A stretch of DNA of 64,000 bases from an uncultured Acidimicrobiaceae bacterium (lineage in GTDB: Bacteria > Actinomycetota > Acidimicrobiia > Acidimicrobiales > RAAP-2): assembly GCA_963840435.1 (NCBI GenBank), contig CAWIYY010000015.1:42105-106104 (forward strand), written 5' to 3'. Made by a program: the position numbers and the translations under genes. The first letter of the stretch is position 1. The number at the start of each line of letters is the position of its first letter. The notes beneath the pieces were generated by a model. It saw nothing but the letters and a program-made list of their open reading frames with translations. It was not told the DNA's origin and ran no database searches. This document shows, piece after piece, positions 1 to 30,945 of this stretch.

Positions 1-1
1 G

Positions 2-319
2 ATCCTCAACACGCACCCCGCCCTCCTCCCGGCCTTCCCGGGCTGGCATGCCGTCCGCGACGCCCTGGCGGCCGGCGCCACCGAGACCGGCTGCACCGTG
101 CACCTCGCCACCCTCGAAATGGACGCGGGCCCAATCCTGGCCCAGCAGGCCGTCCCGGTGCACCCTGGCGATACCGAAGAAATGCTGCACGAGCGGATCA
201 AGATCGTCGAACGCTCGCTCTACCCTGCCACGGTGGCTTGGGCGCTGCGGGAGATCGAGGAAGGTCGCGAGATTGATCCGAGTGACTCGTCGACCGCCCT
301 GCGCCTCGCTGACCGGTGA
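2..319 (+). CDS. purN: phosphoribosylglycinamide formyltransferase PurN, C-terminal part (5' end outside window)
   Basis: Open from base 2 in the frame of ORF 98..319. [50 protein letters not shown] is the PurN/formyl-THF transferase catalytic core (NxHPxLLP, TVH, DxGPI). About four-fifths identical by manual count to the PurN domain of ORF 1212..2657. Confidence 0.85.
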
Positions 320-1158
320 GCGGCGAGGCACTGCGCCCGCCCACTCGCCGCTCCATGCGGGCCAGAAAAGCGACCGTGCAGACCTGGCGCATGGCCACCG
401 CCGACCTGCGCGCCAGGCCGAGGATCGTGATCATCGGCGCTCAGCGGAGTGGGACCACCTCGCTGCACTCCTGGCTGTGCTCTCACCCCGACGTAGCGCC
501 ATTGATGGTCAAGGAGGTCCACTACTTCGACGGCGCCTACGAGCGGTCGGAGCGGTGGTACCGATCCCGCTTTCCCATCAGCCCACCCTGGCGCGTCCAT
601 GTCGAGGCCTCCCCGTACATGCTCTTCCACCCGCTGGCCGCGGGCCGGGCCGGCCGGGACCTCCCTGAGTCCACCCGGTTCGTGGTGCTGCTGCGCGAGC
701 CGGCGGACCGGGCCCTCTCGCACTACCAGTTCGAGCGACGGCAGGGTCGGGAGAGCGAGACCTTCGCCCGCGCCCTCGAACTCGAGCAATCCCGCCTCGA
801 AGGAACCGAGGAGGCAGTAGTCCGGGGCGAGCGCAGCCGACCGCACCGCTGGTATTCCTACCGGTCGCGCGGACGCTACGCCGGGCAGCTCGCCCGCTGG
901 TTCGACGCCGTCGACCGCGAGCGGATCCTCATCATGGAGAGCGAGCGGATCTTCGAGGATCCTTCGGCGACCGGCCAACTCCTGGGCTGGCTCGGACTCT
1001 CGCCTGTTGAAGCTCCCTTCCCCACCCTCAACGCCACCTCCGAGCCCAGCACCGCCGATGCCGAGGTGCGCGATCGCCTCCGCACCGAATTCGAGGCTGA
1101 CAACGAGGCGGTGTTCGCACTGCTGGGTCGACGCCTCTGGACCCGACCGGCGACCTGA
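316..1158 (+). CDS. PAPS-dependent sulfotransferase family protein
   Basis: 280-aa ORF. GTG at 316 overlaps the purN stop (GTGA). [18 protein letters not shown] is the 5'-phosphosulfate-binding P-loop of sulfotransferases. Homologous along its full length to the C-terminal half of ORF 1212..2657. The true start could be ATG 355. Confidence 0.8.
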
Positions 1159-1211
1159 GCGCTCCGGGCCGACGTGATTCTGCGTCCGCCCAGTCTCACT
1201 AAATTGGCCGG

Positions 1212-2657
1212 GTGCGTCTGGCGGTCCTCGTGTCGGGCTCGGGGACGATCCTGCGGGCTATGTTCGACGCTGGCCTTCCGATCACGGTGGTCGTGTCGGA
1301 TCGCCCCTGCGCCGCCCTGGAGATCGCCCGCGAAAAGGGCTCCGACGCGGAATTGGTCGACCGGGCCGAGTTCGGCGGCTTCGGTTCGGATTTCGATCGG
1401 GACGGTTTCACGACCGCCGTGACCAAGACACTGCTGGAGTCTCAGGCCGACCTGGTGGCCATGGCGGGCTTCGGCACCGTCCTGACCGCGCCGGTGCACG
1501 AGGCCTTTCCCGGCCGGATCCTCAACACCCACCCCTCCCTCCTTCCAGCGTTTCCCGGTTGGCATGCCGTGCGCGATGCCCTGGCCGCCGGCGTCAGTGA
1601 GACGGGCTGCACCGTCCACCTGGCCACCCTCGAGATGGACGAGGGACCGATCCTGGCCCAGCAGGCGGTGAGGCTGGTACCCGGCGACACGGAGGAATCG
1701 CTGCATGAAGCGATCAAGGTCGCGGAGCGCACGCTCTATCCCGAGACCATCGCCTGGGCGTTGGGCGAGCTGCGGGCCGGACGGGCCATCGAGGCCCGAC
1801 ACGACCCGGTCCGGCCCCCCGCCGAGCGTGGCGTGCGCGGCGCAGCGCGGCTGAGCAACCCGGCTCGCCGCGGTCGGTCGGCCCACGACCATGCCTGGCG
1901 CTTGGCCACGGCCGACCTGCGGCCCTTGCCCGACATCATGATCGTCGGCACGCAGCGGGCGGGGACCACCTCGCTGCGCCGGTGGCTGCGTGAGCACCCG
2001 GCCGCCACCTACGAGGGCGGCGAGGTGCACTTCTTCGACCACAACTATGCCTTTGGCCGGCGCTGGTACCACGCGCAATTTCCGACCTTCCTGCAACCAG
2101 GGCGGCGCATCGAGTCTTCGCCCTATCTGCTCTTTCATCCCCTCGCTCCGGCCCGGGCCGCCGCCATGATGCCCGAGCGCACCCGTTTCGTCGTGCTGCT
2201 CCGCGAGCCGGCCGAACGCGCCATGTCGCACTATCGCCTGGAACGCTCCCTCGGCCGCGAATCCATGTCCTTCGCCCGTGCTCTGGCCGCGGAGGATGAC
2301 CGGCTCGCCGGAGAGACGGAGAAGGTGCTCCGAGGCGAGCGGAGCCGGTCGCACCAGTGGTTCTCCTACCGCGCCCGGGGCCGCTACGCGGAGCAAGTGG
2401 CGCGCTGGTGGGGCGCTGTCGGGCCCGAACGGGTCAAGGTCGTCGAGAGCGAACGCCTCTATGTCGACCCGGCGGTCGGGGTCGATCTGCTCGAGTGGCT
2501 GGGTCTTCCCGCTGCTGTGGAGCCGTTCCCCAACGTCAACGCCTCCCCTGACCCCCGATCCGAGGACAGGGAGGTGCTGGCGGATTTGAGGGACCAATTC
2601 GAGCCGGACAACGAAGCCCTCTTCGAGCTTCTCGGGCGCCGCCTCTGGCGGCGCTGA
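1212..2657 (+). CDS. fusion protein: complete PurN-type formyltransferase domain plus sulfotransferase domain
   Basis: 481-aa ORF. N-terminus RLAVLVSGSGT...[16 protein letters not shown]...[20 protein letters not shown] is PurN. After a linker, IMIVGTQRAGTTSLRRWL...[16 protein letters not shown] is a sulfotransferase. There is no stop between the domains. Confidence 0.8.
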   Translation: MRLAVLVSGSGTILRAMFDAGLPITVVVSDRPCAALEIAREKGSDAELVDRAEFGGFGSDFDRDGFTTAVTKTLLESQADLVAMAGFGTVLTAPVHEAFPGRILNTHPSLLPAFPGWHAVRDALAAGVSETGCTVHLATLEMDEGPILAQQAVRLVPGDTEESLHEAIKVAERTLYPETIAWALGELRAGRAIEARHDPVRPPAERGVRGAARLSNPARRGRSAHDHAWRLATADLRPLPDIMIVGTQRAGTTSLRRWLREHPAATYEGGEVHFFDHNYAFGRRWYHAQFPTFLQPGRRIESSPYLLFHPLAPARAAAMMPERTRFVVLLREPAERAMSHYRLERSLGRESMSFARALAAEDDRLAGETEKVLRGERSRSHQWFSYRARGRYAEQVARWWGAVGPERVKVVESERLYVDPAVGVDLLEWLGLPAAVEPFPNVNASPDPRSEDREVLADLRDQFEPDNEALFELLGRRLWRR

Positions 2658-2835
2658 GCAGGCCCGGCGCGTTGGGGCCAGCAGCCTCCCGGGGTGCGGA
2701 GAGCCACTAGATTGAGGGGCGCGGCAGCCTCGATCCGGGTGCGGGTCGGTTAGCCCAGCCAGGCGTAGTCGGGCGTTGCAACTGGGCGCCGCCGCGGTCG
2801 CCGAAGCGAAAAGGAGCTGACGAGGACATGGTGTT

Positions 2836-4407
2836 GTGAGGGCGCTGCTTTCGGTCTACGACAAGGACGGCCTGGACGAGCTGGCTCGGGGACTCTCGGA
2901 ACTGGGCTGGGAGCTGGTGGCCAGCGGGAACACGTCGGCCAAGCTGAGCGAGGCCGGCATCGCACACCGTGAGGTGGCCGAGGTGACTGGCTCGCCCGAG
3001 ATGTTGGGCGGCCGGGTCAAGACCCTCCACCCCAAGATTCACGGCGGGATCCTCGCCGATCGGTCCAAGCCGGAGCACCTGGCCGACCTGGAGGCGAACG
3101 GCATCGACGGGATTGACCTGGTCGTGGTCAACCTCTATCCCTTCTCCTCGGACCCCTCCATCGAGCTCATCGATGTGGGCGGCCCGACCATGGTGCGAGC
3201 CGCAGCCAAGAACCACGAGCACGTGGGCGTGGTCACCTCGCCCTCCGACTATCCGGTCGTCCTGGAGGAGCTGCGTCGCTCCGGCAAGCTCAGCGCCGCC
3301 ACCAGGCGCCGACTGGCTCGGGCCGCCTTCGCCCACACCGCCGCATACGACGCCGCCATCGTGGCGTGGCTCGACGGCGCCGGGCCCAGCCCCATCGGGC
3401 AACTCGAGGGCGCGACCGAGGCCGACGGGGAAGAAGCCGCGCTGGCGGCGGTCCTGCCCCGGACCTTGCACCTCACCCTCGAGCGAACCGAGGTCCTGCG
3501 TTACGGCGAGAACCCCCACCAGCGCGGCTCGCGCTATCGCACGGTCGGTGCCCGCAGCTGGTGGGACGACATGGTCCAGCACGGGGGCAGCCCGCTGTCG
3601 TACCTCAACCTCTTCGACGGCGATGCCGCATGGCGCCTGGTGCACGAGCTGGCCTCCGATTCGGGCGAGCGAGCCGTGGCCATCATCAAGCACGCCAACC
3701 CGTGCGGTGCCGCTGTGGCCGGCGACCTGGTCGCCGCCTACGAGCGGGCGCTCGAGTGCGACCCCCTGTCGGCCTTCGGCGGCGTCGTGGCCATCGGGGG
3801 TGACGTGACGGCCCGGGAGGCGGAGGCCATCGCGGCCGGCCCTCAGGCCGACGTGATCATCGCGGCGTCGTACACCTCCGAGGCCCTCGAAACCCTCATC
3901 GCCCGGCGCAAGGCGACGCGGCTCCTCTCGGGACCGGTGCCCGAGCAGGTGGTGCGACAGCTGCGGAGCCTGGGGTCGAGCGTGCTCGTCCAGGACGCCG
4001 ACGCGTTCGTCTCGCCCCGCCGCGACTGGCAGACCGTGACCAAGCGCCAGCCCACAGAGGACGAGTGGCGCGACCTGGTGCTGGCCTGGCGCGTGTGCGG
4101 TCGTACGACCTCCAACGCCATTGCCGTTGTGACCAACGGACAGGCCGTGGGCGTCGGTGCCGGTCAGCAGTCCCGGGTGGTGGCGGCCGAGATCGCCGTG
4201 CAGAAGGCCGGTGAGCGGGCCAAGGGCGGTGCCGCCGCCAGCGACGCTTTCTTTCCCTTCCCCGACGGGCTGCTCGTCCTGGCCGACGCCGGCGTGACCT
4301 CGGTCGTGCAGCCCGGGGGGTCCGTCAAGGACGCCGAGGTCATCGCCGCGGCTGACGAGGCCGGTCTGGCCATGGTCACGACCGGCGAACGGCACTTCAA
4401 GCACTGA
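2836..4407 (+). CDS. purH: bifunctional AICAR formyltransferase / IMP cyclohydrolase
   Basis: 523 aa. N-terminus RALLSVYDKDGL and C-terminus TGERHFKH are typical PurH. High GC3 frame. Confidence 0.95.
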   Translation: MRALLSVYDKDGLDELARGLSELGWELVASGNTSAKLSEAGIAHREVAEVTGSPEMLGGRVKTLHPKIHGGILADRSKPEHLADLEANGIDGIDLVVVNLYPFSSDPSIELIDVGGPTMVRAAAKNHEHVGVVTSPSDYPVVLEELRRSGKLSAATRRRLARAAFAHTAAYDAAIVAWLDGAGPSPIGQLEGATEADGEEAALAAVLPRTLHLTLERTEVLRYGENPHQRGSRYRTVGARSWWDDMVQHGGSPLSYLNLFDGDAAWRLVHELASDSGERAVAIIKHANPCGAAVAGDLVAAYERALECDPLSAFGGVVAIGGDVTAREAEAIAAGPQADVIIAASYTSEALETLIARRKATRLLSGPVPEQVVRQLRSLGSSVLVQDADAFVSPRRDWQTVTKRQPTEDEWRDLVLAWRVCGRTTSNAIAVVTNGQAVGVGAGQQSRVVAAEIAVQKAGERAKGGAAASDAFFPFPDGLLVLADAGVTSVVQPGGSVKDAEVIAAADEAGLAMVTTGERHFKH

Positions 4408-5270
4408 TGAGCGCCATCCTTCTCGACGGCGAGCCGGTGGCCGCCCGTATACGCGCCGAGGTGGCCGACCGGGTGGCTGTCCTGGCCACCGAAGGCGTGC
4501 ACGTGGGGCTGGGTACCATCCTCGTCGGCGATGACGCGCCGAGCGCCCGCTACGTGGCGATGAAGCACGAGGACTCGGTCAGCGTGGGCATCTACTCGGC
4601 TGGGGAGCACCTCTCCTCGAGCGCCACCCAGAACGAGGTGCTCGGTGCCATCGCGGCCATGAATGCCGATCCGAAGATCAGCGCATTCCTGGTGCAGCTG
4701 CCACTGCCCGACGGGCTCGACGAGGAGAGCGCCCTGCTCGCTGTCGACCCCGACAAGGACGTCGACGGGCTCCATCCGGTCAACCTGGGCCGCCTGGTGC
4801 TCGGGACACCGGGGCCCATGCCGTGCACCCCGTTCGGCATCGTCGAACTGCTCCACGCCTACGACGTTCCCGTCGAGGGCCGGCACGTCGTCATCATCGG
4901 CCGCGGCGTCACCATCGGGCGGCCTCTGGCGAACATGCTCACCTTGAAGCGTCCCGGGTTCAACGCCGCGGTGACAGTCGTGCACACCGGCGTGGAGCGG
5001 GACGACATGGCCGCCCTCACCCGCTCGGCCGACATCGTCGTTGCCGCCGCCGGCCGCCCCCACCTGCTGACGCCGGACATGGTGAAGCCCGGAGCGGCCG
5101 TGGTCTCGGCCGGCACCACCTTCGAAGGCCGGAAGTTGATACCCGACGCGCACCCGGATGTGGCCGAGGTTGCCGGGTTCATCACCCCACGGCTGGGCGG
5201 GGTGGGCCCGATGACGCGTGCCATGCTGTTGCGCAACGCGTTGCGAGCTGCCGAGCTGTCCGCTCGGTGA
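4407..5270 (+). CDS. folD: bifunctional methylenetetrahydrofolate dehydrogenase / methenyl-THF cyclohydrolase
   Basis: 287 aa. ARYVAMKHED, DVDGLHPVNLG and VVIIGRGVTIGRPLA are FolD motifs. The ATG overlaps the purH stop (TGATG). Confidence 0.95.
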   Translation: MSAILLDGEPVAARIRAEVADRVAVLATEGVHVGLGTILVGDDAPSARYVAMKHEDSVSVGIYSAGEHLSSSATQNEVLGAIAAMNADPKISAFLVQLPLPDGLDEESALLAVDPDKDVDGLHPVNLGRLVLGTPGPMPCTPFGIVELLHAYDVPVEGRHVVIIGRGVTIGRPLANMLTLKRPGFNAAVTVVHTGVERDDMAALTRSADIVVAAAGRPHLLTPDMVKPGAAVVSAGTTFEGRKLIPDAHPDVAEVAGFITPRLGGVGPMTRAMLLRNALRAAELSAR

Positions 5271-5307
5271 CAACCCGGCCGGCGGAGGCCGGGGAAGGCA
5301 GGTATTG

Positions 5308-5670
5308 GTGAAGAACGGGGAGTACTCGGAGCGACCTTGGGGCAACTACACGGTGCTCGATGACGATGCTCACGACCACAAGGTCAAGAGGCTCGTCGTG
5401 CACCCGGGGAAGCGTCTCAGCTATCAACGCCACGCCCGCCGGGCGGAACACTGGTTCATCGTGTCCGGCACCGCCACGGTCACCCTCGACGGTGCGGTGA
5501 CCGAGCTGCATCCGGGAGACTCCATCGACATACCCCAGGATGGTGCACACCGGATCGCCAATGAGGGTGACGCCGACGTCGTCCTCATCGAGGTGCAGCA
5601 CGGCACGTACTTCGGCGAAGACGACATCGTCCGCCTCGAAGACGACTACGGCCGGGTGCCTTTGCCGTGA
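5308..5670 (+). CDS. stand-alone cupin, type II phosphomannose-isomerase (ManC C-terminal) like
   Basis: ERPWGNYTVL..KVKRLVVHPGKRLSYQRHARRAEHWFIVSG..IPQDGAHRIAN..IEVQHGTYFGEDDIVRLEDDYGR matches the PMI-type cupin signature. I chose GTG 5308, preceded by GGAAGG, instead of the track ATG 5218, which overlaps folD. Confidence 0.75.
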   Translation: MKNGEYSERPWGNYTVLDDDAHDHKVKRLVVHPGKRLSYQRHARRAEHWFIVSGTATVTLDGAVTELHPGDSIDIPQDGAHRIANEGDADVVLIEVQHGTYFGEDDIVRLEDDYGRVPLP

Positions 5671-6536
5671 CACGGATCACCGATCTCCTGGCAGCCGGGC
5701 CGACCTATTCCTTCGAGTTCTTCCCACCCAAGAACGACAAGGAGCTGGCCACGCTCGCCCGCACCATCGGTGAGCTCCAGCCGCTCGAACCCTCCTTCGT
5801 CTCGGTCACCTACCGGGGTGGAGCGGAGTCACGGCAGCGCACCTTCGACCTGGTTTCGGGCATGCTGCACACGACCAAGCTCAATCCCATGGCGCATCTC
5901 ATCTGCGTGGCCCACACCCGCCTCGAGCTGGCCGACATTCTGGTCTCGCTGCGCAAGGCGGGGGTCGAGAACCTGATGGCCCTCGGCGGCGATCCGCCCG
6001 AGGATCCGACCGCGGGTCCCGGAGAACTGGCCTATGCCACGGAGTTGGTCGAACTGGCCCACGCCATCGGCGGCTTCTCGGTCGGCGTCGCGGCGCACCC
6101 GGCGGGCCATCCGCGCTCGCCGCACCTCGAGAGCGACCGGGACTACCTCGCCGCCAAGCTCGAACGAGCCGATTTCGGGGTGACCCAGTTCTTCTTCGAG
6201 GTGGGCGAATACGAGGGTCTTATCTCGGACCTCGAGGCGCGGGGGGTGGACAAGCCGGTGCTGCCGGGCATCCTGCCGGTCACCTCGCTGTCGACCATGG
6301 GCCGCCTGGGGGCAATGGGCGCGGGGGCGCCGTCGTGGATGGAGCAGCGGTTGCGCGCCGCCGACGAACGCGGTGGAGCTGATGCGGTGCGCAAGGAGGG
6401 GATCGAGCTGGCGACGGAGCTGTGCGCCGGTCTCATGGGCGTGGGCGTGCCGGGTCTGCACTTTTACACCTTCAATGCATCAAACGCGACGCGTGAGATC
6501 TATGCCGCACTGGGGCTGGTTCCGCCGGCGCCTTGA
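5667..6536 (+). CDS. metF: methylenetetrahydrofolate reductase
   Basis: 289 aa with YSFEFFPPKNDKE and FVSVTYRGG as MetF N-terminal motifs. The GTG overlaps the cupin stop (GTGA). Confidence 0.9.
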   Translation: MTRITDLLAAGPTYSFEFFPPKNDKELATLARTIGELQPLEPSFVSVTYRGGAESRQRTFDLVSGMLHTTKLNPMAHLICVAHTRLELADILVSLRKAGVENLMALGGDPPEDPTAGPGELAYATELVELAHAIGGFSVGVAAHPAGHPRSPHLESDRDYLAAKLERADFGVTQFFFEVGEYEGLISDLEARGVDKPVLPGILPVTSLSTMGRLGAMGAGAPSWMEQRLRAADERGGADAVRKEGIELATELCAGLMGVGVPGLHFYTFNASNATREIYAALGLVPPAP

Positions 6537-6575
6537 TGTGAGCCCCCTCGTTGGGGGGAGAGGCCGTCGCCCGCC

Positions 6576-6608
6576 GTTCACTTCCGCGTCACTCGCCGGT
6601 CACGCATT
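6576..6608 (+). promoter_or_regulatory. three phased 11-nt direct repeats resembling an actinobacterial PHO box (PhoP operator)
   Basis: GTTCACTTCCG|CGTCACTCGCC|GGTCACGCATT. Matches to G[G/T]TCAYYYR[G/C]G are 10/11, 9/11 and 8/11 by my count. The site is about 175-205 nt upstream of the beta-helix gene. Confidence 0.45.
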
Positions 6609-6780
6609 GGTGTCCGCAGGGCAACACCGAAGCGACAGATGGGGGAAACCCTGGCGTCGATGCCAAAGAGGCCTACCCCGGCCCGAGTCCGTGTATTAGA
6701 ACGCTGCATGACATTGGCGACTGACCCTTGCGCGTGCGAGAGCAAGGGTCAACTGACGCGGTGCTCGAGGGCGCCGGGGG

Positions 6781-8220
6781 ATGGAGGAACCACACGTGAA
6801 GGTCTTTGGGAGAGCAACAGCGCGCAATCTCGGCGCGCTCGGCATGCTCGGCGCGCTGGTGGGAGGCTTGAGCTTCGCCGCCCCGAGTGTGTCTGGTGCG
6901 TCGAGTGGAGGGACCCTGCTCGTCTCGACAACGGGTTCCAACGTCGGCTCGTGCCGGGTGAACGCCTGCCGGACAATCGGCTACGCCGTGTCGCAGGCCA
7001 CCACAGGCTCGACGATCAGCGTCTCTGCAGGCACGTACGCTGAGCAACTGGTCATCACCAACCAGACTCTTTCGATCAAGGGCACCGGTGGGACGGTCAC
7101 GATTCAGCCCACGGCACTGCCGACCTCCGACACCAACAGCGACACCGGTTTGCCGGCCTATCCGATCGTCGACGTGGTGGGCGGCAGCGTGAACCTGAAG
7201 AACCTCACCATTGACGGCTCGGTCGCCTCCAGTCAGTTCACCAGCTGCAGTGACGATTTCGACGGCGTCTATTACCACAACGCCGGCGGCCTCATGTCGG
7301 GCGACACCGTGGAGAACATCTCCCTGCCCACCACACCGACCAACTTGGACGGGTGTCAGGACGGCAACGACGTCCTGGTGCGCTCCGACACCGGGAGGTT
7401 CGCGAGCGTGACGGTCCAGGGCGGCACCAAGCTGGAGTCGTACCAGAAGAACGGCATCTTCTGCATGGACGCCGGCACCACCTGCAAAGTGGATGACACG
7501 ACGATCACGGGAGTCGGGCCCGACCCCTTCCAGGCGGGCAATGGATTCTCCGCCGTCGACGCCAGCTCCATCACGGCCACTGGAAACGCCATCTCAGGCG
7601 ACTCCTACGCTGGAGCGGGAGGCCCGGGAAACCAGTCCGAAGCCATGTATTTCGGTGACATCGGCACCCTGAGCGTCACCGACAACGTCGTGTCGCAGAG
7701 CGACATCGGCATCTACCTCACCGACGATGGCAGCGGTCCTCGGCCGGGCACGTGGACGGTGAGCGGCAACACGGTCAGCGGCGCCACGGACAACATCGCC
7801 GGCGGGGAGGCGAACTACGGCGACGGGATCCAGGTGGACAGCTCGTCCAATGCGATCACCATCACCAACAACACGGTCAGCGGGAGCGCCGAGAACGGGA
7901 TCTCGCTGCTTAGTGCCGGTTTCGACCGGGTGGCGAACAACCACCTGTCTCACAACGCGGACAACGGGATCTACCTCGGGTCTCCGGGATCGACCTCTTC
8001 GGCCGCGACGACCGGCGCCACCGTCTTCGACAACACGCTGAAGAAGAACGGTAACGACGGGATCCTGACTGACACCGGATCGAGTTCCAACTCGTTGAGC
8101 GGGAACAGCGCCACCAAGAACATCAACGGCTTCGACTACCAGGACCTCGGGACTGGCAACACGTGGTCCAGCAACACCTGCACTCCGGCCCACGACTCGA
8201 GCCCGGCCGGGCTCTGCTAG
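6781..8220 (+). CDS. secreted right-handed parallel beta-helix repeat protein (pectate-lyase/NosD-like fold)
   Basis: Signal peptide (LGALGMLGALVGGLSFAAPSVSGA). TGSTISVSAGTYAEQLVI is followed by many NxxxxG/I-rich beta-helix repeats (ISGDS, VSGNTVSGA, ITNNTVSGS, LSHNADNGIYL). The start may be GTG 6796. Confidence 0.7.
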   Translation: MEEPHVKVFGRATARNLGALGMLGALVGGLSFAAPSVSGASSGGTLLVSTTGSNVGSCRVNACRTIGYAVSQATTGSTISVSAGTYAEQLVITNQTLSIKGTGGTVTIQPTALPTSDTNSDTGLPAYPIVDVVGGSVNLKNLTIDGSVASSQFTSCSDDFDGVYYHNAGGLMSGDTVENISLPTTPTNLDGCQDGNDVLVRSDTGRFASVTVQGGTKLESYQKNGIFCMDAGTTCKVDDTTITGVGPDPFQAGNGFSAVDASSITATGNAISGDSYAGAGGPGNQSEAMYFGDIGTLSVTDNVVSQSDIGIYLTDDGSGPRPGTWTVSGNTVSGATDNIAGGEANYGDGIQVDSSSNAITITNNTVSGSAENGISLLSAGFDRVANNHLSHNADNGIYLGSPGSTSSAATTGATVFDNTLKKNGNDGILTDTGSSSNSLSGNSATKNINGFDYQDLGTGNTWSSNTCTPAHDSSPAGLC

Positions 8221-8267
8221 CCGAGACAGAGAGAACGGGAACGTCGTAGGGAGCAAGGCCTCCTGCG

Positions 8268-8310
8268 AAGGCCCCGGTGGCGCGAAGAAGAACCGCGCTG
8301 CCGGGGCCTT
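8268..8310 (+). terminator. stem-loop after the beta-helix gene
   Basis: AAGGCCCCGGtGGCGCG-aagaagaac-CGCGCtGCCGGGGCCTT, followed by gcccgTTTcg. Confidence 0.5.
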
Positions 8311-8381
8311 GCCCGTTTCGACGGGAGTGAGGTCCCGAAGCTGGACCAGGGCAGGTTGGTGGAGGAATAGGGTTCTTCTCC

Positions 8382-9320
8382 GTGTCGGACGCCGCCCTTT
8401 CTCTCGATGCACTGGCTGTCACTGCGGTGGTCCTCACCCACCGCAGGCCGCGACTTGCAGGTGACGTCGTCCGGAGCCTGCTCCATGACGAGGGTTTCTC
8501 CCCCGGACGGATCGTGGTTGTGGTCAATGGCAGTGGTGGGCTCGACGACCCTGCCCTCGAAGCCTCGGTGCAGATGGTCTGGCTGGAGGAGAACTTCGGG
8601 CCGGCGGCTGGGTTCGGAGCGGGCATCCTGCACGCCTTTGCCGATCCGGGCACCCGCTGGGCCTACCTCTGTGAGGATGACATCGGCCTTTTTGGACTGC
8701 CCACCCCTCGGGTCGCCGAGCTCGTGCGCCGCGTGGAAAGCGACCCCGCCCTCGTTGATACGGGCGCGGTAGTGGCCTATGGGCGGCGGTTCGTGGGCCG
8801 AGGTCATTCGGAGAACGTTGTTCCGGGCGCCGGTGATCCGGAGCTCGTCCCGGTGGATGTGGCGGCCTGGGGGGCCACCCTGCTCAGCCGTCGGGTGCTC
8901 GAGCGAGGCGTGCTCCCCGACACTGAGTGGTATTTCGGCTACGAGGATTTCGATTTCTTCTGCCGGGTCAGGGCCTGCGGTCTCCCGGTCCTTGTGGACT
9001 CGCACTCGGCACGCGTGGCCGCCGAAGTACAGACAAACGAGGGGCGCAATGAGGCGATGGCCGGCGCCCGCCCGAAGGACTCGGAGGAGCCGTGGCGGGC
9101 GTACTACGTTGCCCGGAACTTCTTCCATCTCTCCCGTGCGCATGGCTCGCGCTCATGGACGGCGTGGCACTTCGCGTACTCGGCGCGTCGCATCCAGTTG
9201 GCGTCGAGCGCCGAGGAACGGATGGCAACGGTCCTCGGGCTGCTTGACGGGATGAGAGGCCGGCTGGGAGCCCATCCGCGCTTTCAGCGCAAGACGGGCG
9301 AGTTCGAACAACCCGGGTGA
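8382..9320 (+). CDS. glycosyltransferase family 2 (GT-A)
   Basis: VTAVVLTHRRP...VVVVNGSGG...ENFGPAAGFGAG...LCEDDIG is the typical rhamnosyl/galactofuranosyl-type GT2 layout with an ED(D) metal motif. Confidence 0.75.
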   Translation: MSDAALSLDALAVTAVVLTHRRPRLAGDVVRSLLHDEGFSPGRIVVVVNGSGGLDDPALEASVQMVWLEENFGPAAGFGAGILHAFADPGTRWAYLCEDDIGLFGLPTPRVAELVRRVESDPALVDTGAVVAYGRRFVGRGHSENVVPGAGDPELVPVDVAAWGATLLSRRVLERGVLPDTEWYFGYEDFDFFCRVRACGLPVLVDSHSARVAAEVQTNEGRNEAMAGARPKDSEEPWRAYYVARNFFHLSRAHGSRSWTAWHFAYSARRIQLASSAEERMATVLGLLDGMRGRLGAHPRFQRKTGEFEQPG

Positions 9321-9368
9321 TTTCTCCGGCGTGACGCCGCGTCGGTCGCCCGATCTTTCGTCAGGAGA

Positions 9369-11387
9369 TCATTGTCGGCGGGAGGACTTCGACAGCTGAT
9401 CCTTCTGCATATTCGTCATCACCAGTCCCAACACCGGTGGTCGGCGTTGTGTCAGCAGCCTTTGTGTCCGAAGGCCGTCCTGCACCGTGGTGTGCCAGCT
9501 CTCGCAGACCACGACGACGAGGTCGACCACGGGCAAGAGTGCGGCTCCATCCTGTGTCGAGAGGAGCGGCGCTTCGATCAAGAGCACGTCGACCACGTCG
9601 CGAGCCGCCTCAATGAGACTTCCCGCCTTGAGCGCGAGGCGGGCCGGATTGGAGAACACCGACCCCAAGGCGAGGCTCGACACACCCGGAATCTGGGAGG
9701 GTCGGGCGTTGGCCACCAATTCTGCGGCATCGGTATCGGGCATTTCGCCTTCCCAGCCCCGGAACCCCTTGCCGTCACCCTCGAACTCGGTTCGCATACC
9801 GCCGGTCGTGGCTACCAGCACCCGGTCACCGGCCTCGGCGAACACCGTTGCCAGATTGACGACGGCGAGCGACCGCGACGGTTCGTCATTGGGAGAGGTG
9901 ATCAGGATGGCGAAGCGGTGGCGACGCGGGGTGACGAGGTCAGTGCCCGCCCTGGGTACCGGGTACCGCCCCTCGGTGACTGGACCCTCGTCGGGGCCGC
10001 CTGCCATGGCCGCTCCGGTGGGCGCAGAGACCAAGGGCCGCGCCGGGGCCAGTTCGGCCGGCTCGAGTCCAACTCCGCCCCGTTTGACCCACGTGACAGA
10101 GGGGGCCGTGAGAATGGCGACGTACAGCTTGCGGTATGCCTCGGATATCGGCGAATACGGGTCCACCACGATGTCGACGACCGGGATCACCGAGGTCGAA
10201 TTCGGCCCAGCGGGGATCTCGGAGACGACGGGGAGACGGAAGACCTCCTCGGCCCGCTTGGTGGTCCGGATACGCCGATCGAGGCCGTCGAGCAGCCAGG
10301 TGGCCAGGATCCCGAGAATGAGGCCGACGAGGAAACCGATCCCGAGCCGCACCGAGTGCCGGGCCAGCAGTGACGGCTTCGAGTTGAGCATTGACGCGCT
10401 CTTGGCGGGAGTGATGACTCTGAAGCCGGACTGCGGGGTGCCCTGGGCTAGGAGGAGCTGCTGTCTGGCCTGCGCGTGAGCGAGCTCGTTGATGAGGACA
10501 TTTTTCTCAGCCTTGACCGTCGCCGAGACCCCCGGAGTGGTTGTCGTCGTCAGACCGGGAACCAGTGTCGTGGGCGCTCCTGGGACAGTCGTGGCAGCGA
10601 CCAGCCCTAACCCGGGAAGTGTCGACGGTGTCCCGGCGACGGGCCGGAACGAGGTGAGCTGCGCAGATCGGCCGGGAACCGCCAGGGAGGACTTGGCGGT
10701 CGTACTGGTTGTCGTCGGGGCGGTGGTAACAGGAGGCCGGATCACGGTTCGCCGAACCTTGTGCCGCCTGACGGTCGGTGTGGTGGTCGCCGGCTTGATC
10801 GTGGTCGGCGTCACCGGCTTCTTCGGAAGCGCGTTGATCGCGTTCTCCAGGTTGGTGATGTACAGCTGGTTGATGAACTCCGCGTTCTTGGTCGAATTCG
10901 AGAACTGGAGCTGGGAGTAGCTGTCGAGAGCGGTCACGAAGGCGTTTGTCATGCTGACCGCTTTGGCTTTGGTCGGCTGGAGGACCCCGACCTGGAGGAT
11001 GGCCGAACCGCCCTTCTTCGCACCGCCGCCCGCTCCAGCCTGCTTGGCCGCGGCTTTGGCCTCCTTGCTGATCTGGGCTTTGCCGATCACCACCTCGCTC
11101 TGGAGCTTCTTCGTGACCGGTACTCCGTCGGCCGTCGCTGCCGCGTCGACCACCGCCGGCTCGTGAGCGTAGAACTCGAGCTGCTTCACTCCGAGCTTGG
11201 CTCCCAGGTTGTTCCCCTTGGCGGGTGGGTTGAGCCCCACCTCCGCACTGGCCAGCCAGGTGGGCGTGGGGAACGTGGAGGACGTGTGCACCGGGATGAG
11301 GACCGCAACTACCATGCACACGAGCACGAAGGGGATGAGCACCGGCCAGCGACGGATCGGCGCTCGCAAATAGGAAATCGGCTCCAA
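9369..11387 (-). CDS. polysaccharide co-polymerase (Wzz-like) fused to a degenerate BY-kinase-like P-loop domain
   Basis: 672 aa. N-terminal TM, a periplasmic-type region with a Pro/Thr-rich tract, and a second TM (LGIGFLVGLILGILATWLL). Then DPYSPISEAYRKL and FAILITSPNDEPSRSLAVVNLATVFAEAGDRVLV, which is colinear with CpsD/Wzc kinase domains. Confidence 0.75.
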   Translation of the reverse strand: MEPISYLRAPIRRWPVLIPFVLVCMVVAVLIPVHTSSTFPTPTWLASAEVGLNPPAKGNNLGAKLGVKQLEFYAHEPAVVDAAATADGVPVTKKLQSEVVIGKAQISKEAKAAAKQAGAGGGAKKGGSAILQVGVLQPTKAKAVSMTNAFVTALDSYSQLQFSNSTKNAEFINQLYITNLENAINALPKKPVTPTTIKPATTTPTVRRHKVRRTVIRPPVTTAPTTTSTTAKSSLAVPGRSAQLTSFRPVAGTPSTLPGLGLVAATTVPGAPTTLVPGLTTTTTPGVSATVKAEKNVLINELAHAQARQQLLLAQGTPQSGFRVITPAKSASMLNSKPSLLARHSVRLGIGFLVGLILGILATWLLDGLDRRIRTTKRAEEVFRLPVVSEIPAGPNSTSVIPVVDIVVDPYSPISEAYRKLYVAILTAPSVTWVKRGGVGLEPAELAPARPLVSAPTGAAMAGGPDEGPVTEGRYPVPRAGTDLVTPRRHRFAILITSPNDEPSRSLAVVNLATVFAEAGDRVLVATTGGMRTEFEGDGKGFRGWEGEMPDTDAAELVANARPSQIPGVSSLALGSVFSNPARLALKAGSLIEAARDVVDVLLIEAPLLSTQDGAALLPVVDLVVVVCESWHTTVQDGLRTQRLLTQRRPPVLGLVMTNMQKDQLSKSSRRQ

Positions 11388-11786
11388 CGCTCAGCCTCCG
11401 GAAACGGGGTGTGACCGGAGCCACCCCTTGAGTTTGTCGCCCCTCATGGATGCGAAGAGCACGGCTGCGGATACTAATCGCCGGAATTCCTAGAGAGAAT
11501 TCGCCCCTGCGCAGCTGAATCGGGTCGAGTAAGCTCTCGAGCAGCTGCGGTTGGCAACTGCGGTGCATGGCGATGCAATCAGGTGGCGCTCAGCTCGGCT
11601 GTGGCGAAAGAGGGCAAATACGCGGCGTTCTCGTTTCGATAGCGCGCGGTCGTGACGACTTTGTGATTCGGGTGAAATCCATGCGTTTTGTGTGGGTGCA
11701 GGAGGTGCTTGTTGTGCAAACCGGCCGTGAACACGGCGAAACCGCAAAGTTAATCTTTGATGTCCTGCACATTTCTCCTGCATAGG

Positions 11787-11824
11787 TACTTCAATGACAC
11801 TTGACCGTGCCTGCTACTTCAATG
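11787..11824 (+). repeat. direct repeat TACTTCAATG x2 (28-nt period) in a low-GC divergent intergenic region
   Basis: TACTTCAATG occurs at 11787-11796 and 11815-11824, upstream of the dehydratase gene. Confidence 0.6.
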
Positions 11825-11948
11825 CAATGTGAAAGCGCGTGCGGACCAAATCAGAGGGGGTGGAGGAGGTGCGGGGTGACGTACAAGCACCGGCTGGTTT
11901 CCGACTCGAAGACGAACCGCGCGTCCAGGCCCAGCCCCACCAGGGGTT

Positions 11949-13919
11949 TTGATGGCTGACAGGAGCGAGAGGCCCGCGTCGGGCACCGTGCGCATCAGTC
12001 TTCTGGCCACAAAGGTCCGGTCGAGGATGGTGTTCTTCTTCATGGACGCAGCGGTCGTGGTGGCCGCTTTCGGTATCGCCGAGGTTGTGTCACTGCGAGA
12101 TCGAGCTCCTGCGGACTACTGGCCCAAGTTCCTGTTATTCCTCTTAATTACATTGTTCGTGCAATTGGGTGCCAATCGAGTGTTCGGTTTGTACGGAAGG
12201 ATCTGGCGTCACGCCGGCATCGAGGAGGCCCGCAACATCGCCATGGCCTGCCTGGTAACCCTGGCCATCCTGCTTGCCCTCTATCCCATCGGATTCGAGA
12301 TGCACCTGACCCGGGTGCCCCTGCAGGTGATCCCACTTGGTTGTGCTCTCACCCTCCTCGGGATCGGGCTCCTTCGGTTCCACTCACGTCTGCTCGGCTG
12401 GCAGCGAGCCAACCGGGGCATGGGGATCCGAGTGGCCGTGGTCGGCAGCAAGGATGCGGGAGCCGCCGTCATCCGAGGCATGCTGCGCAACCCTGGCGCC
12501 GGCATGTTCCCCGTCGCGGTCATCGACGACGACGAGCGCACGCACGGGCTGTCGCTCATGGGGGTGCCGGTCGTCGGATCTATCGACGATCTGCCCGCGG
12601 CGATCGAGAAGTTGCAGATCCAGCAGGTGCTCCTGGCCATTCCCAATCCCTCGACGGCGACCGTCGAGCGCTGCGTCCGGGCCAGTGAGGACGCGGAGAT
12701 CGTGATGAAGATCGTGCCGGACTTGTCCGACATCGTCAGCTCCCTCTCCGGCTCCATTTCCGAGCCCTCGGTCTCCATCCGATCGGCTCGCGAACCGCGG
12801 ATCGAGGATCTCCTTGGTCGCCGTGAGGTGGTCACCGATTTGGCGACGGTGAGGAACGCGCTTGACGGTCGGCGGGTTCTGGTCACTGGGGCAGGAGGCT
12901 CAATCGGATCCGAGATCTGCCGACAGGTGTCAGGCTTCGGGCCTGACGTGCTGGTGATGCTCGACCACGACGAGACCCACCTGCACGAAGCGTCGGCGAC
13001 CACCTCGGCAAGTTGCAAGGTGGAGCAGGTCCTGATCGACGTGTCCAACCGCGAAGCGGTGATGGACGCGTTCATCCGCTGGCAGCCCGATGTCGTCTTC
13101 CACGCGGCCGCCCACAAGCACGTCCCCATCCTCGAGACGCACGTCGTCGAGGCGGTCACCACCAACGTGTTGGGAACACGAAATGTGCTCGATGCCGCCA
13201 CTGAAGTTGGGACGGAGCGATTCGTCTTCGTGTCGACGGACAAGGCTGTCCGCCCGTCGAGCGTGATGGGTGCCACAAAACGGGTGGGAGAGCGTCTGCT
13301 GCTCGACCGTGCTCCGGATGGCGCCGCCTTCTGTGCGGTCCGCTTCGGCAATGTCCTCGGCAGTCGGGGCAGCGTCATCCCCACCTTCCAGCGCCAGATC
13401 GCTGCCGGTGGTCCCGTGACAGTGACCGACCCTCACATGACCCGGTACTTCATGAGTGTGGAGGAAGCCGTGCAGCTCGTCCTCCAGTCATCCGTGCTGG
13501 CCGAGGGGGGCGATATCTACATGCTCGAGATGGGTGAACCTGTCTCCATCCTCGATCTGGCGCATCGGATGATCCGACTTTCCGGGCTCCAGCCCGGGCT
13601 CGACATCCGCATCCGGATCACCGGACCTCGAATCGGAGAGAAGCTTCACGAGCAGCTGCACAGCTCGAGCGAGGATCTCTCACCGACGTTGCATCCCTCC
13701 ATCCTGCGCCTTCTCTCGCCAGAGATCGACACGTCGGAGGGACTCAACGAGGGAGTGTCGGAACTGGGACTTGCTGCGGCAGATCGGAACGAGGTTCGAG
13801 CCCGGCGGATTCTCTTCGACATGGTGTCCGAGCACACCGCCGACGAGCGCCTCGAACTGAACGACGTCAGGGGGCGGGAGCCGATCGCGTTCGCGGTCGA
13901 TAATGAAATCTCGGCGTGA
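11949..13919 (+). CDS. membrane-bound UDP-N-acetylhexosamine 4,6-dehydratase (CapD/PglF/WbpM family)
   Basis: 656 aa. Four to five N-terminal TM helices, then VAVVGSKDAGA and VLVTGAGGSIGSEICRQV Rossmann motifs, and STDKAVRPSSVMGATKR. Confidence 0.85.
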   Translation: MMADRSERPASGTVRISLLATKVRSRMVFFFMDAAVVVAAFGIAEVVSLRDRAPADYWPKFLLFLLITLFVQLGANRVFGLYGRIWRHAGIEEARNIAMACLVTLAILLALYPIGFEMHLTRVPLQVIPLGCALTLLGIGLLRFHSRLLGWQRANRGMGIRVAVVGSKDAGAAVIRGMLRNPGAGMFPVAVIDDDERTHGLSLMGVPVVGSIDDLPAAIEKLQIQQVLLAIPNPSTATVERCVRASEDAEIVMKIVPDLSDIVSSLSGSISEPSVSIRSAREPRIEDLLGRREVVTDLATVRNALDGRRVLVTGAGGSIGSEICRQVSGFGPDVLVMLDHDETHLHEASATTSASCKVEQVLIDVSNREAVMDAFIRWQPDVVFHAAAHKHVPILETHVVEAVTTNVLGTRNVLDAATEVGTERFVFVSTDKAVRPSSVMGATKRVGERLLLDRAPDGAAFCAVRFGNVLGSRGSVIPTFQRQIAAGGPVTVTDPHMTRYFMSVEEAVQLVLQSSVLAEGGDIYMLEMGEPVSILDLAHRMIRLSGLQPGLDIRIRITGPRIGEKLHEQLHSSSEDLSPTLHPSILRLLSPEIDTSEGLNEGVSELGLAAADRNEVRARRILFDMVSEHTADERLELNDVRGREPIAFAVDNEISA

Positions 13920-18150: not shown

Positions 18151-19089
18151 TCAGTCCTCGAGGCCGTGCAAGGAGAAACCGAGCGCACGCACCTTGGCCA
18201 GTCGTTCGTCGCCGAACTCGTTGCGCATCTGCTCGAGAGTGAACTCCAGCGGGAGCGGGGGGTTCGGGAAGGCCATCAACTCCTCCATCGTGTCCTCCGG
18301 CGCCTCGATCCCGAGAAACTCGACCAATCGGCGGACTTCCTCGCGAGGAGAGCGGCACAGATCGCCATGGTTCACCAGAAGAAACGTCCCCTCAGGCATG
18401 GCTCGCCCCCGTTCGATCGCCAGACTGTTCGAGGCAATCCAGTAGTCCAGCGACCGTACCGGGTTGGCCGACGAACCTCCCTCGATCCCGAACTGAGATC
18501 CCCAACGTGCGACCTGGACCTGGTTGGGGCTGTGCGCCATATAGATCCCGTGGCGGATCACGTGGACGTAGCGCAGCCGGTCCCCGAAGTAGCTGCGAAA
18601 ATGAGGGAGAAAGACGTGGCTGTTTGGCTCCTTCCACCCCCAGAGCGGTGAGTCCTCTCGGACCTGTTCGCGCGAGTGAGCCAGCGTTTCTACTCTGTCT
18701 TCCAGCCACGCGTCGGAGCGGTCGTCCGACAGGTCACCCCGCCTTGCAAAGGCCGAGCAGCGGTGGACCACGGCGGATATGGTCCGCCGATCTTCTCTCG
18801 TAGGCACCAGCAGACCGGTCATTGCCTTCTCGAGTATCGCCAGCGAGTGCCGGATCGGCGTGGCGTCGGGGCCCTCGGGATCAGGATCCCATCTGGGGAG
18901 CTTGCAGAGCAGGGTGAACCATTTGTTGTCCCCGGCTTTGTTCAGATCCGAACCGGTGTACACCTGCAGGCGTCGCATGATCTCGACAACCACTCGCGTG
19001 CCGCTGCCTCCAACGCCGCCAATGACGACGGGGCCTTGCTGTGGCTCGAACCGCGGGGCTGGCTGCGGCCGGCTGAAAACTGGGGTCAC
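18151..19089 (-). CDS. sulfotransferase family protein
   Basis: VVIGGVGGSGTRVVVEIMRRL is a P-loop-like PAPS site. WGWKEPNSHVFLPHF is typical of the Sulfotransfer_3-like group. Confidence 0.7.
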   Translation of the reverse strand: MTPVFSRPQPAPRFEPQQGPVVIGGVGGSGTRVVVEIMRRLQVYTGSDLNKAGDNKWFTLLCKLPRWDPDPEGPDATPIRHSLAILEKAMTGLLVPTREDRRTISAVVHRCSAFARRGDLSDDRSDAWLEDRVETLAHSREQVREDSPLWGWKEPNSHVFLPHFRSYFGDRLRYVHVIRHGIYMAHSPNQVQVARWGSQFGIEGGSSANPVRSLDYWIASNSLAIERGRAMPEGTFLLVNHGDLCRSPREEVRRLVEFLGIEAPEDTMEELMAFPNPPLPLEFTLEQMRNEFGDERLAKVRALGFSLHGLED

Positions 19090-29275: not shown

Positions 29276-30945
29276 GGCGTGTCGTCAGGTTCTCATGCCT
29301 CCTGGCCGCGCTGACCTTCGCGGCTTCGATCGCCTCGTTCGGCCTGAGCAGCCTGGGGTCCGGTTCAGCTGGTGCGGCGTATCCCCTGCTGACATCAACG
29401 GGGTCGAGTTTCGCCGGCGTCGCCATTTCAGAATGGCAGGGGCAGTTCAACGAGCTCGATGCCGGCAACATCAACTTCACCGTCACGTCCTCCGTCGTCG
29501 GCATGAACGACTTCTGCCAGAACACGGTCAACTTTGGCGCGACCGACATCGCCTACAGCACGAATCAGTCGAACTGCACGACGAGCCAGGTTCCCTACCC
29601 GTTCCAGTACATGCCCGACGTCGCCGGCGGACTGGCCTTCGAATACAACCTCACCGGGCAGAACGGCGAGGCGGTCAACAACCTGATTCTGAACGCAACG
29701 TTGCTCGAAGGGATCTTCACCGGTGCCATCACGAACTGGGACGATCCTTCCATCGCTGCGCTGAACCCCGACGTTCGCTTGCCGAACGAGGCCATCACGG
29801 CCTTCTACCGGGGAGACCCTTCCGGTGAGAACTACCTCCTCAGCGACTACTTCCTGCACACGAATCCGGGACCGATCACTGCGTTCCAGCAGTTGGCCGG
29901 AGTGCCCTCGACGCCAGGTCAGCCCTCGGCGACCTGGGCGGCCTTCCCCAACGGCAAGCCGACCAGCCTGCAGGGCCTGGTCAGTGTCGGCTCGGCAGAC
30001 AGCGCGGCGCAGGGCCCGAAGCAGACGCAAGGCGGCATCTCCTACGTCGAGACCGCCTATGCAAAGCAGGCTGACTTACCCGTGGCCTCGGTCGTCAACC
30101 AAGCCGGGTATGCCGTCCAGCCTGCGTCCTACAACGTCGCCGTCGCCCTGACCGGCGCCATCTTGTACCAGGACCTCACCCAGAACCTGGCCGGGGTCTA
30201 CACGAACCCGAATCCCAACGCCTATCCCATCTCGGCATACAGCTATTTCATCGCCCAGTGCGTGCCGTCCCAGGCGGCGACTCAGAACTTCGCTTGCGAC
30301 AGCTCAGGAAACGTCACACAGGTCACATCACAAGGTCAGGAGATGGCCGCATTCATCACCTTCGTGGCCTGCCTCGGCCAGGCGAATATGGCAAAACTTG
30401 GGTATTCGCCGATACCACCGAACCTGGTGGAAGACGATTTCCAGGCGGCGGGCCGGCTTGAGGGCGGGGTAGAACCACCGGCACCCACGCCGCAGAACTG
30501 CGACAACCCGTACATCACGGGGGCACTCCAACCGGTGGGTCAACCGACGGTGGTGGGGTCGGCCAATCCGGGATCGGCAGGGGCTGCATCAACCGCTGCC
30601 ACCACCGCTGCCGCCACGGCCGCCGCGGCAGCCGCGGCCCAGCACGCCCAAAACGGTGGGTTGAACGCGCCGCAGAGCGTCACGGGTTCTGGTGCGTCGG
30701 CGACCGCCACGGCCGGTGGTCCATCCAAAGCCACGAAGAAGAAAGCAGTGAACGCGCTGACCGACCCTGCCCTGGCCTACGACCGCCAGGACGGTTTGAT
30801 CGGCGCCGCCAACAGTGGGCTGGACAGCTGGTCGCCCACTGTCGTGGCTCTGTGGTCGCTGATCTTCGCCGTCTTCCTCGTGGGGGTGCCGTTGAGCGTG
30901 TGGTTCTGGCAACGAAGGCGAAAAGACTCGGGAGGCATGACGTGA
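29272..30945 (+). CDS. pstS: PstS-type phosphate-binding protein with Ala-rich linker and C-terminal transmembrane anchor
   Basis: ATG 29272 overlaps the pstB stop. Colinear with E. coli PstS: [59 protein letters not shown]. The C-terminus [32 protein letters not shown] is a TM helix plus a basic tail. Confidence 0.75.

Follow-up and report, generated by a model that had tools for sequence, protein, structure and literature searches.

We describe a gene that encodes a PurN domain and a sulfotransferase (ST) domain in one polypeptide. It lies on contig CAWIYY010000015.1 of an uncultured Acidimicrobiaceae bacterium (Acidimicrobiales; assembly GCA_963840435.1), within a 64,000-nucleotide stretch (positions 42,105 to 106,104, forward strand) that is referred to below as the window. 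At the start of the window, purN and an ST gene occur twice in tandem and are followed directly by purH, folD, a cupin gene, and metF; coordinates and profile matches agree on this order, which had already been given in the original prediction, made from the sequence alone. Copy 1 consists of two genes, PurN_1 and the free-standing ST_a. Copy 2, PurN_2::ST_b, is a single in-frame protein of 481 amino acids (aa) (Table 1). Its domain architecture is previously undescribed and extremely restricted. In an exhaustive HMMER scan of 1.84 billion representative proteins (50% identity), one representative covers both domains (P0012, match 17 to 480), plus one truncated representative, and the other top matches cover one half each. 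A literature search for PurN-sulfotransferase fusions or Acidimicrobiia sulfotransferases found nothing. The architecture is thus not widespread, with one spanning cluster in the scan, and the earlier remark that no characterised protein of this kind was known agrees with both the literature and the scan.

The open reading frame (ORF) of copy 2 and its Pfam assignments agree, as had been predicted. Formyl_trans_N matches residues 1 to 180 (E = 2.1e-36) and Sulfotransfer_1 matches residues 240 to 437 (E = 8e-9; 35.7 bits against a gathering threshold of 22), with Sulfotransfer_3 in addition (35.0 bits against 27); profiles, sequence comparison, and fold comparison all assign each half to its family. 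Among 5.8 billion proteins searched, about 20 clusters share the Formyl_trans_N plus Sulfotransfer architecture, at 63 to 92% identity, and they come from JGI, ENA, NCBI, and Logan assemblies. The full-length orthologs P0001 to P0017 are 63 to 92% identical to the window protein, and in-frame orthologs are present at loci L001, L003, L006, L009, L010, L011, and L080, the last of which is an Illumina JGI contig. Ratios of nonsynonymous to synonymous substitution (dN/dS, NG86) are 0.12 to 0.23 for the PurN part and 0.16 to 0.25 for the ST part, and values for the linker reach 0.56 to 0.88, only at long distance. That about 20 clusters keep the frame across platforms, with purifying selection on both domains, shows the fusion to be real and under selection. 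PurN::ST is a true conserved in-frame gene and not an assembly error.

There is next to no chance that a sequencing or assembly indel deleted a stop between two separate genes. Indels do occur in this material. The long-read metagenome-assembled genome (MAG) loci L003, L005, L008, and L049 have purH itself split across frames, which points to long-read indel errors and calls for caution with single-assembly frame claims in this survey, and copy 1 shows a 1-nucleotide (nt) indel difference between two assemblies of one strain. Such noise is insufficient to explain the fusion, since the frame stays open over such divergence: the linker is open in every ortholog, the fusion recurs down to 63% identity in independent samples and platforms, and both flanking domains are under purifying selection.

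The PurN half scores 159.9 bits against TIGR00639 (cutoff, 150.1), compared with 37.2 bits against ArnA (cutoff, 777) and 19.2 bits against the dTDP-4-amino-4,6-dideoxyglucose formyltransferase model (cutoff, 238). All of its best PDB matches, by sequence and by fold, are glycinamide ribonucleotide (GAR) transformylases, namely those of Mycobacterium tuberculosis (3DA8), human (GART), and Escherichia coli. The match to 3DA8 has an E-value of 4.5e-37 at 45% identity, and target-normalised TM-scores to PurN structures are 0.74 to 0.89; E-values are on the order of 1e-36 for PurN and 1e-6 to 1e-5 for sugar formyltransferases. N105, H107, and D143 are invariant in 13 fusion orthologs. The S8-G-S-G-T12 phosphate loop and E172 are likewise invariant and are the same in the PurN::PurH and unfused PurNs of the order. 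We take N105, H107, and D143 to align with Asn106, His108, and Asp144 of E. coli PurN and E172 to be the equivalent of Glu173. The motifs SGSGTIL, AGFGTVL, [14 protein letters not shown], EMDxGPILAQ, and LHExIKxxERxLYP occur unchanged in PurNs that are free or fused to ST, PurH, or SucD. At L009, L010, L011, and L080, the fused PurN is the only PurN between sucCD and purH, with 10-kb flanks covered on each side. The domain is assigned to the PurN family, and we conclude from these matches that it is probably the ordinary GAR transformylase of its lineage, an activity predicted by homology.

Among solved structures, the ST half is most similar to the uncharacterised bacterial ST 3RNL and to heparan sulfate sulfotransferases. 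PDB sequence matches include 3-OST-3 (E = 1.4e-17) and NDST1 (E = 1.6e-13), with 3-OST-3, -5, and -1 spanning 1e-17 to 1e-14. Foldseek matches ST_b to 3rnl (E = 3e-13; TM-score, 0.75) and to 3-OST-3 (6xl8; E = 2e-12; TM-score, 0.73), both scores being target normalised. The 5′-phosphosulfate-binding motif (5′-PSB; G246-x-Q-R-x-G-T-T-S254) and the 3′-phosphate-binding motif (3′-PB; R331-E-P-x-x-R-x-x-S339) are invariant. The ST sequence kEvHyfD aligns with aEpHffD of 1T8T, and its E271, H273, and D276 are invariant; these presumably correspond to Glu184, His186, and Asp189 of 3-OST-3. The basic residue that we take to be Lys215 of the 3-OST-3 substrate cleft is not conserved in ST_b. No signal peptide or transmembrane segment is predicted in the fusion ST, so the ST is probably cytoplasmic, where 3′-phosphoadenosine 5′-phosphosulfate (PAPS) is available. 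ST_b looks like a competent 3-OST/NDST-like PAPS sulfotransferase, judged by its intact catalytic motifs. Heparan sulfate is not expected in this organism as its acceptor.

Table 1. Coordinates of the purN-sulfotransferase module, the genes that follow it, and further sulfotransferases in the window
Feature	Position	Strand	Description and basis
purN copy 1 (PurN_1), 3′ part	1..319	+	C-terminal 105 aa, frame 2, TGA 317-319; Formyl_trans_N and TIGR00639
GTGA start/stop overlap, purN copy 1/ST_a	316..319	+	Junction of translational-coupling type; read from the sequence
ST_a, free-standing 280-aa heparan-sulfate-type PAPS sulfotransferase	316..1158	+	GTG start; Pfam and PDB matches
Spacer, 53 bp, ST_a to fusion gene	1159..1211	.	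ORF coordinates
purN copy 2 fused to ST_b (PurN_2::ST_b), 481 aa	1212..2657	+	One uninterrupted ORF, GTG start, TGA stop
PurN domain, aa 1-190	1212..1781	+	S8-G-S-G-T12 loop, putative catalytic residues N105/H107/D143, E172
Arg-rich linker, aa 191-232	1782..1907	+	Equivalent of the free-standing ST's N-terminal tail, with the conserved WRxATA helix at its end
ST_b domain, aa 233-481, plus stop	1908..2657	+	G246-T-Q-R-A-G-T-T-S254 5′-PSB, E271-x-H273-F-F-D276, R331-E-P-x-x-R-x-x-S339 3′-PB
purH	2836..4407	+	NF002049, 611 bits against cutoff 402
folD	4407..5270	+	FolD equivalog models ≤342 bits, below individual cutoffs; Pfam THF_DHG_CYH in L001 ortholog
Small cupin, mannose-6-phosphate isomerase C-terminal type	5308..5670	+	PF01050, 1.3e-35
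metF	5667..6536	+	TIGR00676, 234.5 bits, below cutoff 293.7; Pfam MTHFR in L001 ortholog
Further sulfotransferase	18151-19089	-	In glycan island; no significant similarity to ST_b
Further sulfotransferase	45826-46686		In glycan island; 30% identical to ST_b

Copy 1 reads in the sequence as first described, with the stop of purN overlapping the GTG start of the 280-aa ST. The window start cuts PurN_1 and leaves about 102 of its 5′ codons outside. The remaining fragment, encoded in frame 2 of positions 2 to 316, reads [16 protein letters not shown] ... RLADR; it matches Formyl_trans_N at 8.6e-25 (profile positions 104 to 180) and TIGR00639 at 106 bits for the fragment only. The full-length ortholog in L001 is 207 aa long and scores 170.1 bits against TIGR00639. 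The window PurN_1 is 81% identical to it, with a dN/dS of 0.10. L001 has an ATGA overlap instead of GTGA at the aligned junction position. A programmed frameshift at this junction was considered and rejected, as the TGA has no slippery heptamer before it and the ST frame contains a stop two codons upstream. ST_a matches Sulfotransfer_1 (9.3e-11; 42.0 bits against a gathering threshold of 22) and Sulfotransfer_3 (1.1e-9; 39.3 bits against 27), its best PDB matches are 3rnl, 3-OST-3, -1, and -5, and NDST1, and its orthologs in L001, L003, L005, L006, L011, and L080 give dN/dS values of 0.18 to 0.24.

Downstream of the fusion, the cupin of about 120 aa between folD and metF overlaps the metF start by 4 nt and is kept in most related loci that reach that far. 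No promoter (sigma-70) or terminator consensus was found in positions 1 to 7000. A riboswitch or leader upstream of purH or folD was rejected, with no Rfam match at gathering score in the whole window and one chance microRNA match (E = 0.19) in positions 1 to 7000. Since no Rfam family, terminator, or promoter consensus interrupts it, this 7-kb block looks like one operon.

The distribution of the ST next to purN is narrow. Relatives of the ST were found in 562 stretches among GTDB species representatives, and the best 75 loci were fetched with 10-kb flanks. In only 9 of these 75 does purN or purH lie within 10 kb of the ST, and there it adjoins the ST; the 9 are MAGs from one soil survey, all named “uncultured Acidimicrobiaceae.” None of the remaining fetched loci (ST identity, ≤55%; the 75 best of 562) has purN or purH directly beside the ST. 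A metagenome scan with patterns in the PurN part returned only PurN-only loci, from which fusions are not countable; among the matches listed, purH lies directly 3′ of purN in 70 of 71 informative loci (PurNs 59 to 78% identical; gaps of 9 to 190 nt), and folD, the cupin gene, and metF then continue in most of those that extend far enough. In the window and in all loci of the clade, purH lies 3′ of the fusion, and sucC and sucD lie upstream in L001, L005, and L011. A third paralog, ST_up, joins ST_a and ST_b in a clade that excludes every other family member, which argues for a single ST insertion. Together, the metagenome gene order and the clade-restricted ST adjacency indicate that purN-purH-folD-cupin-metF is the ancestral order and that the ST was inserted once. 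The original prediction had the module recruited from the purine operon; the direction is the reverse, with the ST entering a conserved purN-purH junction.

The tandem duplication of the purN-plus-ST unit, proposed earlier, is borne out by collinear direct DNA repeats and by equal synonymous divergence (dS). The repeats pair positions 1 to 276 with 1517 to 1792 (76%), 383 to 493 with 1894 to 2004 (75%), and 1088 to 1140 with 2596 to 2648 (77%), at spacings of 1516, 1511, and 1508 nt, respectively. Because the spacing falls by a net 5 nt (1516 to 1511) across the junction, ST_b lies in the PurN_2 frame. The two window copies share 78% protein identity in PurN and 53% in ST. Their dS is 1.00 for PurN_1 and PurN_2 and 1.06 for ST_a and ST_b, and their nonsynonymous divergence is 0.15 and 0.37, respectively. 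Equal dS with unequal nonsynonymous divergence indicates one old duplication of the whole unit, with the ST evolving faster. The window PurN_1 forms a group with that of L001 (87% identity over the shared part), outside the clade of fused PurN_2s, so the copies separated before the species did; on this grouping and the paralog dS of about 1, a recent tandem duplication was rejected. The junction peptide shared by the two copies had been offered as proof that the association predates the duplication. It does not serve as such, since WRxATAxLRPLP is the N-terminal helix of the whole free-standing ST family and appears in the alignment in members far from any purN.

Gene order around the fusion varies within the clade. 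PurN_1, ST_a, and PurN_2::ST_b occur in this order in the window and L001; L005 and L006 have a decayed PurN_1 remnant ahead of ST_a and the fusion; ST_a is frameshifted in L012, which also has the fusion; the fusion precedes ST_a in L011 and L080; and ST_up, another ST, and the fusion follow one another in L008 to L010. PurN_1 remnants lie upstream of ST_a at L006:8121-8423, L005:8309-8419, and L003:163-255, with the fused PurN intact downstream, and the L006 remnant has an internal deletion that leaves the first 12 residues and residues 136 to 206. Every clade member examined has the fused copy. The fused gene is thus the constant element, and the unfused PurN_1 is the dispensable one. Two assemblies of the same strain differ at the copy 1 junction: L001 (8460-9919) has separate genes with an ATGA overlap and L002 (4733-6193) has a 486-aa fusion. 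The difference is a 1-nt indel and two substitutions, either a real polymorphism or an assembly error, and it places fusion and fission one mutation apart at this junction. A group II intron maturase-type ORF (L012:7016-8458; PF08388, 3.9e-11) lies directly upstream of the frameshifted ST_a of L012.

Between metF and icd/mdh, the window contains a surface-glycan island of about 45 kb (positions 6781 to 52440). It encodes secreted beta-helix/NosD-like proteins, GT2 and GT4 glycosyltransferases, a PglF-like dehydratase, a DegT aminotransferase, a GNAT protein, a UDP-sugar dehydrogenase, an epimerase, AsnB, a methyltransferase, a GH18 protein, and a sortase. The two further sulfotransferases of the island (Table 1) were rejected as close paralogs of ST_b, given 30% identity for one and no significant similarity for the other. 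The locus and window together hold at least four sulfotransferases plus glycan genes. Four large ORFs (496 to 936 aa) have no Pfam match, at 30852-33662, 35485-37461, 9369-11387 (minus strand), and 46683-48173; two such ORFs flank the sortase gene (33659-34696) and may encode its surface-protein substrates.

Around purN, related loci have as many as five consecutive ST genes, and the interval from sucD to purH is a variable, sulfotransferase-rich array. Three ST genes of other subfamilies lie upstream at L010:5166-9236 and two at L001:4942-8220; a Sulfotransfer_4 gene (L009:10793-11545) and a DXD glycosyltransferase gene (L006:11123-12004) lie between the fusion and purH in their respective loci. 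Genes for envelope or glycan functions recur beside free-standing ST relatives, including FtsW/RodA, MltG, GT2, GT4, AsnB, and UDP-sugar dehydrogenase genes, as does aroE, which comes from one shared-synteny group. In that ortholog group (L015, L017, L026, L027, L030, L038, L041, L048, and L052), the ST sits alone and in opposite orientation between an FtsW/RodA-family gene and aroE-mltG (around positions 7800 to 12900), a family member lodged among housekeeping genes. A heparan-sulfate-type ST, WpsH, is encoded in the wps-1 exopolysaccharide cluster of Actinoplanes missouriensis (PMC13390465). The literature still treats sulfated polysaccharides as unverified outside cyanobacteria (PMC8205485, PMC13390465). 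The island is a candidate sulfated-glycan pathway in Acidimicrobiales, and the gene context suggests a glycan as the ST acceptor.

The two domains of the fusion look independent in the AlphaFold2 model (pLDDT, 91; pTM, 0.66), in which both are mostly above 90 and residues 207 to 220 fall below 50. The linker is Arg rich (pI 12), predicted to be disordered, and variable among orthologs in both length and sequence. PurN has other fusion partners in Acidimicrobiales: about 19 clusters of PurN::PurH, 3 of SucD::PurN, and 2 of DedA/UptA-like::PurN (P0024 to P0118, P0063, and P0111). The PurN part passes TIGR00639 in one tested example of each type, and PurH and SucD are the usual chromosomal neighbours of PurN. 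The variable linker, the other fusions between neighbours, and the clade-restricted adjacency favour proximity as the cause of fusion, the only obvious benefit being co-expression.

We therefore favour, at a probability of roughly 0.62, the view that gene adjacency gave rise to the 481-aa protein as a true bifunctional fusion, with two independent enzymes on one chain. A heparan-sulfate-type, PAPS-dependent ST gene would have been inserted between purN and purH in the ancestor of a small Acidimicrobiaceae clade and would then have become translationally coupled to purN by a 4-nt stop/start overlap, a state that would persist in copy 1. The purN-plus-ST unit would have been duplicated in tandem, and a small indel whose length is no multiple of 3 would have removed the stop from one of the copies, so that the Arg-rich N-terminal tail of the ST became a flexible linker. 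The PurN domain presumably keeps acting as a GAR transformylase in purine synthesis. The ST domain would act independently in the cytoplasm, most likely on a sugar in an intermediate of envelope or exopolysaccharide synthesis that the neighbouring, sulfotransferase-rich glycan genes produce. Fusion would give fixed 1:1 co-expression from the purine/folate operon and not a coupled reaction on one substrate.

Several points weigh against this view. Both activities are predicted from homology, and the 5′-PSB Lys of the animal enzymes is Arg in ST_b. No PAPS-synthesis genes were seen in the window. The statement that the fused PurN is the only PurN covers 10 kb around the locus, and purT or a second purN may lie elsewhere in the genomes. 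The lineage of the window itself retains two intact PurN copies, which is unusual, and persistence of the fusion to 63% identity could reflect a selective advantage outside a neutral adjacency model.

The alternative with the most weight, though still doubtful, retains the same origin of the fusion and has the ST domains act on a non-glycan acceptor, such as a small metabolite, lipid, natural product, or protein. Lipo-oligosaccharides of rhizobia and mycobacteria are among the known targets of bacterial sulfotransferases (PMC8205485), members of the ST family also occur fused to methyltransferases (P0035) and other domains, one ortholog group lies among ftsW/rodA-like, aroE, and mltG genes outside any glycan cluster, and the locus includes a 2OG-Fe(II) oxygenase gene in L001 and L011. 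Of the solved relatives whose acceptor is known, the closest are nevertheless all carbohydrate sulfotransferases, the 3-OST-type E-x-H-x-x-D motif is conserved, and the surroundings are mostly glycosyltransferases, nucleotide-sugar enzymes, and beta-helix proteins. It is unlikely that PurN_1 acts as the GAR transformylase of two-copy genomes, with the fused PurN a redundant passenger that serves as a scaffold, dimerisation module, or expression handle for the ST. The window and L001 do have two intact copies, of which PurN_1 is under strong purifying selection (dN/dS, 0.10) and scores higher against TIGR00639 (170 versus 160), but no ortholog departs from the catalytic and substrate motifs of the fused domain, the dN/dS of that domain is 0.12 to 0.23, and relatives lose PurN_1 and not the fused copy.

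The original prediction had leaned toward a bifunctional N-formyl/sulfo modifier of an amino sugar, in which the PurN-like domain would N-formylate, for example, a 4-amino-4,6-dideoxy-hexose and the ST would sulfate the same sugar or glycan. Sugar N-formyltransferases share the fold, with ArnA and the dTDP- and GDP-sugar formyltransferases appearing as weak matches; the window encodes a PglF/CapD-like dehydratase, a DegT aminotransferase, and a GNAT protein; and the second PurN in the window and L001 could cover purine synthesis. We consider this very improbable. The PurN equivalog cutoff is exceeded and the sugar formyltransferase cutoffs are missed by far (37 versus 777 and 19 versus 238). 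The active-site motifs, including the SGSGT loop and E172, are those of PurN::PurH and unfused PurNs, dN/dS values give no sign of acceleration, and the fused copy is universally kept, often as the sole PurN within the fetched flanks, while the unfused copy decays. No evidence favours metabolic coupling of PurN and ST, the other reading offered at the outset. There is a slim chance that the activities are functionally linked, through a joint N-formyl, O-/N-sulfo product or through a PAPS/PAP domain that tunes GAR transformylase or purine flux to sulfur or envelope status, or that the purN locus of this clade is the core of a multi-sulfotransferase, glycosaminoglycan-like polymer pathway in Actinomycetota.

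If adjacency explains PurN::ST, the mechanism of fusion is probably ordinary, and the gene is likely a clean, datable case of overlapping, translationally coupled genes fusing, with two-gene, fused, indel-polymorphic, and pseudogenised states coexisting in close relatives. It is also a reminder that “Rosetta-stone” fusions need not imply shared function. Annotation pipelines label the protein plain “PurN,” which hides the sulfotransferase. The stronger lead is the context, four to six ST genes around purN beside a 45-kb glycan island in soil and peat Acidimicrobiales. As sulfated polysaccharides have yet to be verified outside cyanobacteria (PMC8205485, PMC13390465), the loci would be good candidates for one.

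Among known systems, the PurN half is closest to the PurN family (TIGR00639; 3DA8, 1CDE, and the human GART domain), with which it shares the fold, the catalytic Asn/His/Asp, the SGxG(S/T) loop, the C-terminal E-x-x-Y-P helix, and a position upstream of purH. It differs from a typical PurN in a C-terminal extension of 290 aa (linker and ST) and, in the lineage of the window, in having a second paralogous copy. The PurN::PurH, SucD::PurN, and DedA-like::PurN fusions belong to the same PurN lineage (64 to 78% identity), but PurN::PurH joins two steps of one pathway and the ST partner has no known link to purines or folate. ArnA, Fmt, FDH, and the sugar N-formyltransferases likewise combine the formyl-tetrahydrofolate transferase fold, in one polypeptide, with another catalytic or binding domain related to sugars. 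In ArnA, however, the formyltransferase has a C-terminal subdomain of its own and both domains work on a single UDP-sugar in a single pathway, whereas the formyltransferase of the fusion is a plain PurN and no shared substrate is indicated. The ST half shares the PSB and PB motifs and E-x-H-F-F-D with the 3-OSTs and the NDST N-sulfotransferase domain (PF00685; 1T8T, 6XL8, 1ZRH, 3BD9, and 1NST) and with the bacterial ST 3RNL, at target-normalised TM-scores of about 0.7 to 0.75 and sequence E-values of 1e-13 to 1e-17; it differs from the animal enzymes as a predicted cytoplasmic bacterial protein with Arg in place of the PSB Lys. WpsH offers an actinomycete parallel, a heparan-sulfate-type ST encoded with exopolysaccharide genes and a second ST of another family, for which a sulfated polysaccharide is proposed and unverified (PMC13390465). 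It is likened to ST_a and ST_b by its description, and it differs from them in being free-standing inside a Wzx/Wzy cluster, without a link to purN.

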